Part shown: piece after piece, positions 1,055 to 15,654 of the stretch
Layout of the letters: the number at the start of each line of letters is the position of its first letter
How positions within the stretch are numbered: the first letter of the stretch is position 1
Source: Arcticibacter sp.
Lineage (GTDB): Bacteria > Bacteroidota > Bacteroidia > Sphingobacteriales > Sphingobacteriaceae
Length of the DNA: 64,000 nucleotides
NCBI RefSeq assembly: GCF_045629565.1
Contig: NZ_JAZQRL010000007.1
Span: 88 to 64,087 of the forward strand
Reading direction: 5' to 3'
Made by a program: the position numbers and the translations under genes
The notes under the pieces: model-generated
The model's input: the letters and a program-made list of their open reading frames with translations, nothing else
Told to the model about the DNA's origin: nothing
Databases searched by the model: none

Positions 1055-1085
1055 TTTGTGAATGTTGAGCTTATAACTATATTTG
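1055..1085 (+). promoter_or_regulatory. Bacteroidetes housekeeping promoter (-33/-7)
   Basis: TTTG (1055-1058), 19-nt spacer, TATATTTG (1078-1085); exact match to the TTTG-N19-21-TAnnTTTG consensus. Confidence 0.75.
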
Positions 1086-1088
1086 TAT

Positions 1089-1157
1089 GCCCTCTCAAAG
1101 GGCATGTTTTTCATAGGTAGATGTAGGGTCGAATACTTGTATTCGACCCTTTTTTAT
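1089..1157 (+). ncRNA. candidate small non-coding RNA (5' hairpin, single-stranded core, terminator)
   Basis: Directly downstream of a canonical promoter: ATGCCCT/AGGGCAT hairpin (1087-1105), linker GTTTTTCATAGGTAGATGT, then a 12-bp perfect terminator stem plus T-tract; no ORF. Ends are estimated. Confidence 0.5.
1125..1157 (+). terminator. intrinsic terminator
   Basis: AGGGTCGAATAC (1125-1136) / GTATTCGACCCT (1139-1150) perfect inverted repeat followed by a T-run. Confidence 0.8.
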
Positions 1158-1192
1158 TTTCAACCACAATTATACTTATTTGTTGAGTAATC

Positions 1193-3138: not shown

Positions 3139-4305
3139 ATGTTTCCTAACCTCTCGCATCTGATAGAGTATCTCACCGGACTGAATATTCCGCTTCCCAT
3201 CCAAACGTTTGGCTTCTTTGTAGCACTTGCCTTCGTGGCGGGCTATTGGGCGTTTAGCGAAGAATTAAAGAGAAAGGAGAAACAAGGACTGGTTCATCCT
3301 TTCAAAAGAAAGGTTACCATTGGCGAGCCTGCTTCTACTTCGGAAATGCTGATGAATGGCTTGTTTGGTTTCTTGTTAGGATATAAAATTGTTGCCGCCA
3401 TTTTTAGTTATAGCGAATTCGTCAATGATCCGCAAAGCTTTATTTTATCGGGGAGAGGCAACTTTTTCGGTGGCCTAATTGTCGGTTTAGCTTTTGCTTT
3501 CATGGCTTTTAACGATAAAAAGAAAGTTCAACTCCCAAAACCGCGGGTTGTCGAAGAAGTCGTTCATCCTTACCAGTATATGAGCACGCTGATCGTTTGG
3601 GCAGCTGTATGGGGCTTTCTCGGTGCAAAGATCTTCCACAATTTGGAGTATTTCGATGAGTTTATGCGCGACCCGATAGGTGGCCTTATTGCGTTTAGCG
3701 GACTCACCTTTTATGGTGGTTTAATTTGTGGTGGTGCCGCAGTTTTATATCTGGCTCATAAGAGGGGAATTAAGCCGGTTCATATGCTGGATGTAGGCGG
3801 ACCAGGTATGATGCTTGCCTATGCTGTCGGTCGGATGGGATGCCACATGTCGGGAGATGGTGACTGGGGTATTGAAAATTACAGCCCGAAGCCGGGATGG
3901 CTTAGCTGGGCTCCTGATTGGGTATGGTCATTTAAATTTCCCCATAATGTTATTAATGAAGGTGTACCTATTCCGGGATGTGTCGGCCGGTATTGTAATG
4001 AGCTTCCTGTAGCAGTGTACCCCACCTCATTGTATGAGTTCCTGGGCGGACTTTTACTATTTGCGGTGCTGTGGTCTCTGAGAACAAAGATAAAGCCTGC
4101 GGGAATGATGTTTTCTCTATACCTTATTTTAGCAGGTGTTGAGCGCTTTCTTATTGAGCTTATCCGGGTTAATTCTAAATATCATGTAGGGGGGCTTAGT
4201 TTTACTCAGGCCGAACTTATTTCCACCATAATGGTTTTGCTAGGAGTAGCAGGGATCATTTGGTCGCTGAATAATTACAAAAGCCAGAAAGTCCAGTCAG
4301 TATGA
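3139..4305 (+). CDS. lgt: prolipoprotein diacylglyceryl transferase
   Basis: Multi-TM; GLTFYGG, GRMGC, YPTSLYE, RFLIE.IR motifs. Confidence 0.88.
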
Positions 4306-5096
4306 ATTTAGAGCATTTAACCAATCAGGTAATAGAACTGGCAAAGTCGGCGGGTTCGTTCATCCGCGAAGAATCCTCCAGATTTGATGCTGCGAAGATT
4401 GAGTATAAGGGGCTTAACGATATGGTATCTTACGTTGACAAGGGTGCTGAAGAAATGATCGTTGCCGGCTTATCCAAATACTTACCAGCAGCAGGCTTCG
4501 TTACGGAAGAGCAGACGATTAACAAAGTTGGCGAAGTGTATAACTGGATCGTAGATCCTCTTGATGGAACCACCAACTTTATTCATGGCATACCTGCTTT
4601 CTCCGTGAGTATCGCTCTCCAAAAGAACGATGAACTGCTTATCGGGGTTATCTATGAAGTTAATCGGGATGAGTGTTTCTATGCCTGGAAGGACGGCGGA
4701 TCTTTTATGAATGGTAAGAAAATTACGGTAACGGGCAATGAAACATTTTCTGCTTCCTTACTCGCGACGGGGTTTCCTTATTATAACTTCGAAAAACTAG
4801 AAAGATACATTAACGTATTCAGGGAACTTACTCAGGTAAGCCACGGCTTAAGGCGCATAGGTTCAGCGGCGGTAGATCTCGCCTATGTAGCCTGCGGTAG
4901 GTTTGACGGATTTTTTGAATATAATCTTAACGCATACGATATTGCAGCTGGTGTCATCCTTGTTCGTGAGGCCGGAGGATTGGTAACAAACTTTTCCGGC
5001 ACGGAAGAAGTGTTTGAGGCAAGGGAGCTGATCGCAGGTAATCCCTTTATCGCTTCAGAGCTTCACCAAGTCATTAGTAAGCATTTTAGCGATTAA
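4302..5096 (+). CDS. suhB: inositol monophosphatase family (SuhB)
   Basis: [28 protein letters not shown] motifs. Confidence 0.87.
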
Positions 5097-5242: not shown

Positions 5243-5800
5243 TTAAAGAGCTTCGGAAACAACTTCTGTTACTTCGGGAACCATCCTTTTTAAAAGACTC
5301 TCAATACCGGCTTTCAACGTGTAGGTGGAAGACGGGCATCCACTGCAAGATCCTCTTAGCTCAACAGTCACTATACCATTTTCAAAAGATCGGTAACTGA
5401 TAGCACCGCCATCTTGCTCTACGGCAGGTCTTACGTAATCGTGAAGAATTTGCTGGATCTTAATTTCAGTTTCTGTTCCTTCAAACGCCGTGTTTTCATC
5501 TACCACTACATCTTTAACGCGCAGCTCTGCCTCGGTGGCACCTTTAACAAATTCCTTAAGTATCGGCTCTATGTCGGCCCATTCAGCATCTTCCGTTTTG
5601 GTAACAGTGACGAAATTACTTGCAAAGAAAACACCATTTACGAAATTAAACTTGTAAAGTTCTTTTGCAAAGGGAGAGGCCTCAGCACTCTCTTTCGTCG
5701 GGTAATCCACACTTCCGTTAAGCAGAAGCTTGTTCACCAGAAACTTCATGGTAGCTGGATTGGGTGTGGACTCTGTATATACGTTTATATTAATTGCCAT
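5243..5800 (-). CDS. NifU/Nfu family Fe-S carrier (NifU_N + NifU C-domain)
   Basis: TESTPNPATMKF N-domain; VRPAVEQDGG and GSCSGCPSS (CxxC); TAATTTTG -7 box at 5818-5825. Confidence 0.88.
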   Translation of the reverse strand: MAININVYTESTPNPATMKFLVNKLLLNGSVDYPTKESAEASPFAKELYKFNFVNGVFFASNFVTVTKTEDAEWADIEPILKEFVKGATEAELRVKDVVVDENTAFEGTETEIKIQQILHDYVRPAVEQDGGAISYRSFENGIVTVELRGSCSGCPSSTYTLKAGIESLLKRMVPEVTEVVSEAL

Positions 5801-5903
5801 TAGATGTATGTTTTATACAAAATTATCAAAAATATCAGCCTGCCCCTGTGTTAGCTGAGCTTTTTACGTGTAGATGACCCACAGGCGACAGGTGTGCCCT
5901 GGA

Positions 5904-15623: not shown

Positions 15624-15654
15624 TTTGACAATAAAAAAAATCTCTCTATATTTG
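15624..15654 (+). promoter_or_regulatory. Bacteroidetes housekeeping promoter of the rpmH operon
   Basis: TTTG (15624-27), 19-nt spacer, TATATTTG (15647-54). Confidence 0.7.

Follow-up and report, generated by a model that had tools for sequence, protein, structure and literature searches.

A conserved small RNA candidate of Sphingobacteriaceae, usually encoded upstream of ubiX

In gamma-proteobacteria, 6S RNA (ssrS) is encoded directly upstream of ygfA; it is ~180 nt long, mimics an open promoter, is processed from a co-transcript, and is abundant and constitutively made. The element analysed here lies upstream of ubiX in a stretch of Arcticibacter DNA of 64,000 nucleotides (the window). It shares with 6S RNA the fixed tandem position of a small RNA gene before one unrelated metabolic gene over long evolutionary distances, but it has a predicted length of ~67 nt, has its own terminator and does not match the Rfam 6S models. 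Closer in phylogeny, the intergenic sRNAs GibS, MasB and BatR of Bacteroides thetaiotaomicron have been reported to pair with mRNAs, in a host that works without Shine-Dalgarno-led initiation or Hfq (PMC7366714, PMC10994844, PMC10861873). These sRNAs and the element have in common the phylum, a free-standing gene, a sigma-A promoter of the TAnnTTTG type, an intrinsic terminator and an exposed single-stranded region. However, they have no similarity in sequence or structure (the best Bacteroides Rfam model, BTnc231, scored 14.9 bits against a cut-off of 80.4 bits), and the element is shorter (~67 nt), restricted to Sphingobacteriaceae and far more conserved in its exposed region. Terminator riboswitches and attenuators of the preQ1-I type also combine a promoter-proximal hairpin, a conserved single-stranded tail and a terminator before a cofactor-biosynthesis gene. 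The element differs from them in that it has neither an antiterminator nor a conserved loop-tail pseudoknot, that some of its copies have no co-directional downstream gene, and that the downstream gene apparently has its own promoter. Finally, the guide RNAs of dCas12f-sigma-E systems in Bacteroidota carry the guide at the 3' end of the scaffold and are linked to rpoE-dcas12f loci (PMC13472631). We rejected a guide RNA of this kind as the identity of the element, as its 3' end is a conserved terminator and no such genes were present among the adjacent ORFs inspected.

An earlier note on this DNA, made from the sequence alone, had not recognised the element as a known family and had called for an Rfam scan. 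We used the 4,227 models of Rfam 15 in a permissive scan of positions 850-1250 and, at gathering thresholds, in a scan of the whole window and of L005, L020 and L021. No Rfam 15 family reached its gathering score in the permissive scan (the best, Listeria SbrA, RF01489, scored 27.3 bits against the 45 needed, and the others fell further below their cut-offs), and the gathering-threshold scan gave no matches in the whole 64-kb window, L005, L020 or L021. This agrees with the note, which had not recognised a known family in it. At Rfam gathering scores, the whole window likewise yielded no tRNA, rRNA or riboswitch. SbrA is like the element in being a small RNA of ~70 nt that ends in a GC-rich terminator hairpin; however, its score came from the terminator stem and U-tract only, the element has a 30-nt insertion against 13 nt in the model, and Listeria belongs to an unrelated phylum. 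The match is a chance resemblance between terminators. We found no description of the element in the literature searched and no Sphingobacteriaceae-specific sRNA family in either Rfam 15 or that literature. The element is a new RNA family built on the general plan of known sRNAs.

All of the features that had been claimed for the element were found in the window where they had been placed. The locus is laid out as follows:

1055-1058, + strand: -33-like TTTG, a weak, poorly conserved promoter half, read from the window sequence
1078-1085, + strand: sigma-A type -7 box TATATTTG (TAnnTTTG), after a 19-nt spacer from the TTTG
1089-1156, + strand: predicted small RNA transcript, ~66-70 nt (ends approximate, +/-3 nt)
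1089-1103, + strand: 5'-terminal hairpin GCCCU-CUCAA-AGGGC (the DNA inverted repeat ATGCCCT/AGGGCAT occupies 1087-1105)
1106-1124, + strand: linker GTTTTTCATAGGTAGATGT between the 5' hairpin and the terminator
1104-1129, + strand: invariant 26-nt block ATGTTTTTCATAGGTAGATGTAGGGT, of which 1104-1124 is predicted to be single-stranded and 1125-1129 is the start of the terminator stem
1125-1150, + strand: intrinsic terminator hairpin of 11 bp with a 4-nt loop (terminator scan)
1151-1160, + strand: terminator U-tract TTTTTATTTT, a T-run kept in all homologues
1161-1192, + strand: spacer to ubiX; a -7-like box close to the consensus, CTTATTTG at 1175-1182, precedes the ATG by 10 nt
1193-1756, + strand: ubiX (flavin prenyltransferase family; Pfam Flavoprotein PF02441, E = 3.4e-41), outside the RNA and its usual downstream neighbour
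60-893: gene for a metallo-beta-lactamase-fold protein, which flanks the element

The predicted small RNA transcript is ~67 nt long, and the covariance model spans 1085-1157 at 99 bits. The 5' hairpin had been described correctly, although as DNA the palindrome is longer than the hairpin. The perfect 12-bp terminator of the earlier note stands as an inverted repeat with a T-tract, but its 12-nt arms are only 2 nt apart, so that the realistic stem is the one listed above. The further flanking genes are lgt and a gene for an MtaB/MiaB-like radical-SAM methylthiotransferase. On the other side, 9 nt past the stop codon of the metallo-beta-lactamase-fold gene, a palindrome CCCTTTTAAAGGG at 902-914 forms a weak hairpin with no clear U-tract on the + strand; it may mark the 3' end of that gene.

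Homologues, for which a search had also been called for, were collected by blastn, nhmmer and a covariance model built in this analysis. The genome set comprised loci encoding UbiX relatives, one genome per species (81 sources), and the metagenome set came from a degenerate pattern scan of contigs that gave at least 120 loci, one of which (L122) was a chance match, leaving at least 119. The element was recovered in 26 genome loci and in these metagenome loci. The 26 genome copies, which scored 62-99 bits, all come from Sphingobacteriaceae-like sources and represent seven genera (Arcticibacter, Pedobacter, Pelobium, Daejeonella, Mucilaginibacter, Sphingobacterium and Parapedobacter), while none was found in those ubiX loci of the 81-source set that were titled Chitinophagales, Flavobacteriales, Saprospiraceae or Vicingaceae. 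The nearest relative of the window is Arcticibacter eurypsychrophilus, with a UbiX that is 83% identical. All 100 metagenome loci searched with the covariance model matched it, at 59-97 bits. We rejected an origin from a mobile element or phage, as no match was found in IMG/VR viral contigs, GenBank phages or PLSDB plasmids.

Some loci depart from the common arrangement. Five from Parapedobacter, Sphingobacterium and Pedobacter (L003, L009, L025, L052 and L057) had no covariance-model match within 2.5 kb of ubiX; these genomes have either lost the RNA or carry it elsewhere, as the Parapedobacter-like metagenome contigs do. In L160 the whole unit is duplicated: a single ubiX is preceded by tandem copies at 5545-5617 and 5780-5853, and both have a -7 box and a terminator of their own. 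At 13359-13435 of L114 lies a variant of the family in which the terminator hairpin is longer (...CGAATAACTGCGAGAGTTTTTCGACC...) and both the 5' hairpin and the promoter region differ, and variants of this type also occur in RNA-library contigs (loose ends, runs X27, X28 and X34).

The alignment shows, in order, the -7 box, a few variable bases and the 5' hairpin, the invariant block ATGTTTTTCATAGGTAGATGTAGGGT and a covarying terminator. Among the matches listed, 130 of 138 unique copies share the identical 26-mer, also at the seven positions left free by the search pattern; in the genome loci, a set found without that pattern, it is identical in 23 of 26. UbiX from the same loci has a mean identity of 67% (range 52-77%) to the UbiX of the window. 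The near-invariance of the 26-mer against this mean indicates that the RNA is under much stronger constraint than its neighbour. In the ensemble of the 68-nt transcript the linker positions have unpaired probabilities of mostly 0.6-0.9; the unpaired core proposed earlier is therefore predicted to be mostly unpaired and is essentially invariant. The linker contains three UAG repeats (UAGG-UAGA-UG-UAGG). An invariant stretch of 26 nt, kept across genera, exceeds the typical length of an mRNA seed. This length favours the main rival reading, which we regard as rather unlikely and in which the element is a protein-binding or housekeeping RNA whose linker is a platform for a conserved protein or a conserved RNA (rRNA or tRNA); such an RNA would act by sequestration or within a ribonucleoprotein and not as an mRNA-pairing seed.

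The 75-nt RNA has a folding energy of -29.1 kcal/mol (z = -5.98), and none of 200 shuffled sequences was as stable. Each of the 26 genome homologues, folded independently, adopted the same two-hairpin shape in spite of differing stems and loops. Covariation, another check that had been proposed, was found in both helices across the genome and metagenome homologues. In the 5' hairpin, stem changes are compensated (GCCCU/AGGGC, UACCCU/AGGGUA and GCCUC/GAGGC) while the loop is free to vary, and double changes occur at 5 of 7 pairs in 100 sequences. The terminator covaries as well (for example GGGUCAGAAC/GUUCUGGCCC in two Pedobacter species); in the 100 sequences 98.9% of its cells are paired and 6 of its 11 pairs show compensatory changes. 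For both helices together, the 100 sequences have double changes at 11 of 18 pairs (74 cells, compared to 14.5 in shuffles), and 92.7% of cells are paired compared to 34-58% when the partners are slid. The smaller, independently ascertained genome set agrees, with 7 pairs showing double changes versus 1.8 in shuffles. At three terminator pairs, U·G or G·U was found in 25-44 of ~92 sequences; on the minus strand each of these would turn into a C·A mismatch, which assigns the RNA to the + strand.

The earlier statement that the element holds no ORF has to be amended: a mechanical 35-aa ORF with a TTG start (1083-1190) spans the element, but a coding role is not credible, given that loops vary in length from species to species and that no stop precedes the terminator. 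The existence of this ORF and the invariance of an ATG at 1104 are what a small protein gene, read from that TTG or from the ATG (MFFIGRCRVEY...), would have in its favour, and we give such a gene hardly any credence. The sequence is invariant to the same degree at all three codon positions, with no synonymous-site substitutions; the terminator loop varies from 3 to 6 nt by species and thereby shifts the frame; the frame runs without a stop up to the terminator U-tract and so has none within the transcript; and the stem substitutions are compensatory at the RNA level. The ORF from the ATG at 1104 was rejected on account of the frame-shifting terminator loops, and a 9-codon ORF from an ATG at 1087 was rejected as that ATG is not conserved.

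The promoter had been called perfect, which holds for one of its halves. Of the 138 unique copies among the matches listed, 130 carry a strict TAnnTTTG whose distance to the invariant core downstream is 16-21 nt (mode 19), whereas a -33 TTG at the matching distance is kept in just 40 of 130 homologues among these matches, so that the -33 half had been overstated. Moreover, the TTTG-spacer-TAnnTTTG pattern has 3 matches in the 64-kb window where 1.75 are expected, and 28 of 100 shuffles gave as many or more; taken alone, the pattern is not beyond chance. Apart from the element, just one full match to TTTG-N17-21-TAnnTTTG in the window looks intergenic, at 15624-15654 (TTTGACAATAAAAAAAATCTCTCTATATTTG). 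The alignment of genome homologues revealed no conserved operator-like motif upstream, and the combination of a conserved -7 box with no such motif is a further point for a protein-binding or housekeeping RNA. The sigma-A box TAnnTTTG spans -12 to -5 in Flavobacterium psychrophilum (PMC9723704), which predicts a start of the small RNA near 1090.

The conserved core is present in many RNA libraries. The window locus itself was found in one run only, a DNA metagenome, and no RNA run was found for the source organism; the metatranscriptome contigs that cover the element (X26, X27, X28, X32 and X33) are from related species and assembled from mixed relatives. In X32 and X33, short-insert soil metatranscriptomes of one study, contigs cover window-equivalent positions 1088-1122, with a word depth over the element of ~200 in the lower of the pair and ~2,400 in X33. 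In metatranscriptome contigs an adapter, always in the same orientation, is joined directly to 5' ends at window-equivalent 1086-1089, which is 1-4 nt after the -7 box and agrees with the predicted start at 1090 within a few bases (1-4 nt). Abundant short fragments in X32 and X33 also end, adapter-joined, at window-equivalent 1118-1128 (the linker interior or the base of the terminator); these ends may come from fragmentation during library preparation, from reverse transcriptase halting at the hairpin or from genuine processing of the RNA. The X26, X27 and X28 contigs include the terminator, and some run on into unrelated flanks, which may be read-through or contaminating DNA. Isolate-like RNA runs (X29, X30, X34 and X43-X48) gave shallow contigs at a depth of 2-30 with flanks included, a pattern in which RNA and DNA are not separable. 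The size-fractionated libraries X60, X61 and X70 yielded no contig of the element. Thus, the RNA is present in RNA libraries with a consistent 5' end, and its 3' end is placed at the predicted terminator U-tract. The conserved -7 box, the covarying hairpin and terminator, the RNA-library coverage and the free-standing copies away from ubiX described below together support the self-contained unit proposed by the earlier note. The element is very probably a genuine, independently transcribed and conserved non-coding RNA.

The proximity of ubiX raises the idea that the element controls this gene in cis, as a leader or attenuator or because its transcription and terminator modulate the overlapping ubiX promoter (by read-through or promoter occlusion); it would then tune the synthesis of the prenyl-FMN cofactor. 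We think this decidedly unlikely, even though the linkage is close. The distance from the end of the U-tract to the ubiX start is 16-80 nt in most genome loci, and the orientation is the same. Among the matches listed there are 113 informative metagenome copies, in which ubiX lies at most 100 nt downstream in 85 and 101-330 nt downstream in 10 (~84% of copies, 95 of the 113 listed, are therefore just upstream of ubiX, within 330 nt), ~1 kb away in 2 and nowhere downstream in 16. The sRNA-ubiX pair persists while the upstream neighbours differ between genera, the -7-like box of ubiX comes immediately past the terminator, and some RNA-library contigs, as noted, extend beyond the terminator.

In some lineages, however, the RNA is independent of ubiX. 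Of the 16 listed metagenome copies that lack a downstream ubiX, and so do not sit, as a riboswitch or attenuator always would, in the leader of the gene it regulates, 14 can be judged on 980 nt or more of downstream sequence, and these copies occupy several unrelated contexts. In the Parapedobacter-like context the element lies behind an ankyrin-repeat gene and is followed by genes for a 387-aa protein and an ABC-transporter-like protein (named by sequence only), while in five loci the only genes downstream are on the opposite strand (L137, ECF-sigma-like; L155, 6-phosphogluconolactonase-like; L172, L183 and L185). In L081, L089 and L159 an insert of ~140 nt with inverted repeats separates the RNA from ubiX, indicating that the spacing to ubiX is not essential. 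The insert (L081, ~4600-4775; L159, ~3662-3838; L089, where the sRNA is on the - strand at 5674-5746, within the ~180 nt that separate it from ubiX) carries repeated inverted repeats of the GACGTCCC...GGGACGTT type and has the look of a miniature repeat element. In a Pedobacter MAG contig (L020, 3059-4917) the sRNA is found ~0.8 kb downstream of ubiX, inside ~1.8 kb with no ORF of at least 60 aa and no Rfam match; this region may have decayed, may be non-coding in some unusual way or may stem from an assembly error.

The spacer between the RNA and ubiX points the same way. Of 84 unique ubiX spacers, 21 hold a strict TAnnTTTG, compared to a shuffle count of 3.8 (maximum 9), and the box usually precedes the start codon by 1-8 nt; the copy in the window spacer is imperfect (CTTATTTG). 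Judging by this enrichment, ubiX probably has its own promoter and a very short leader; its mRNAs may even lack a leader altogether, and the promoter seems to overlap the sRNA terminator. As the earlier note had also observed, no antiterminator pairing is apparent: the RNA forms one stable fold only, and neither terminator arm has a complementary segment elsewhere in it. A conserved loop-tail pseudoknot is absent too, and is not to be expected given the variable loop of hairpin 1. With ubiX-less copies, convergent genes, a spacer with its own box and neither antiterminator nor pseudoknot, an obligate ubiX attenuator or riboswitch is unlikely, and an attenuator role is disfavoured, though sRNA transcription may have a secondary, local effect on ubiX. 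The start region of ubiX as a local target was likewise rejected: its complementarity to the RNA (-8.9 kcal/mol) is no better than that of the mtaB control (-8.7 kcal/mol), so there is no preference, and the divergent L002 copy shows no compensatory change. Overlapping signals alone can explain the adjacency, and the linkage would best be accounted for in this way: a ubiX promoter in and just after the sRNA terminator would leave no neutral place for a rearrangement breakpoint.

We rate somewhat better than even the full statement that the element is an independently transcribed, non-coding sRNA, Sphingobacteriaceae-wide, that acts in trans via its linker. The sigma-A -7 box would drive transcription from ~1089/1090, the first 15 nt would fold into the 5'-terminal hairpin, probably protecting the 5' end, and the strong intrinsic terminator would form the 3' end. 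The exposed linker of ~21 nt and the first bases of the terminator stem would then be the working surface of the regulator, with the linker base-pairing with target mRNAs and possibly blocking translation initiation. Trans action, the seed and the translational mode are the parts of this explanation that we infer. Several ubiX genes and other ORFs in the fetched loci share the start context AUGAAAAA. The linker segment UUUUUCAU is its complement and could thereby block translation initiation. Paired with the start regions of ubiX and mtaB, the native linker gave ~-8.8 kcal/mol, compared to -6.6 +/- 0.6 kcal/mol for shuffled linkers. A target search by duplex energy in the 64-kb window had as its best non-self hit -25.9 kcal/mol, which is inside the range of shuffled cores (-22.9 to -30.5 kcal/mol). 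In 1.35 Mb of fetched loci, exact 10-mer complementarity to the specific (non-A-rich) half of the core was at chance frequency, and only A-rich matches of the ATGAAAAA type recurred.

That no mRNA target emerged from the 64-kb window, the ~1.35 Mb of loci or the ubiX start, together with the very high word depth in soil metatranscriptomes, would suit a protein-binding RNA. However, no candidate partner protein is linked to the element, as the neighbours besides ubiX vary; the hairpin-linker-terminator layout is standard for base-pairing sRNAs; and since the target search spanned ~1.35 Mb only, the absence of a target is weak evidence. Taken together, the length of the invariant block, the apparently constitutive promoter and the high abundance are about as compatible with a protein-bound or housekeeping RNA as with a trans-acting regulator. 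An unlikely and more specific proposal along these lines is that the element is a new housekeeping or ribonucleoprotein RNA of Sphingobacteriaceae, with its 26 nt read by a conserved protein or paired with a conserved RNA. One form of this idea would make it a general modulator of Shine-Dalgarno-less initiation via the anti-AUGAAAAA segment, with a standing like that of 6S or Y RNA.

Riboregulation in Bacteroidota beyond gut Bacteroides is almost unexplored. Sphingobacteriaceae are common in soil, the rhizosphere and cold environments, and the RNA, which is short, apparently abundant in soil metatranscriptomes and present in seven named genera, offers a well-defined entry point for this group. 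The covariance model built here can be used to annotate it in genomes, and the overlap of an sRNA terminator with a putative ubiX promoter makes a compact case for the insulation of tandem transcription units in the phylum. The constraint on the exposed sequence implies that its partner, be it a set of mRNAs or a protein, must be important.
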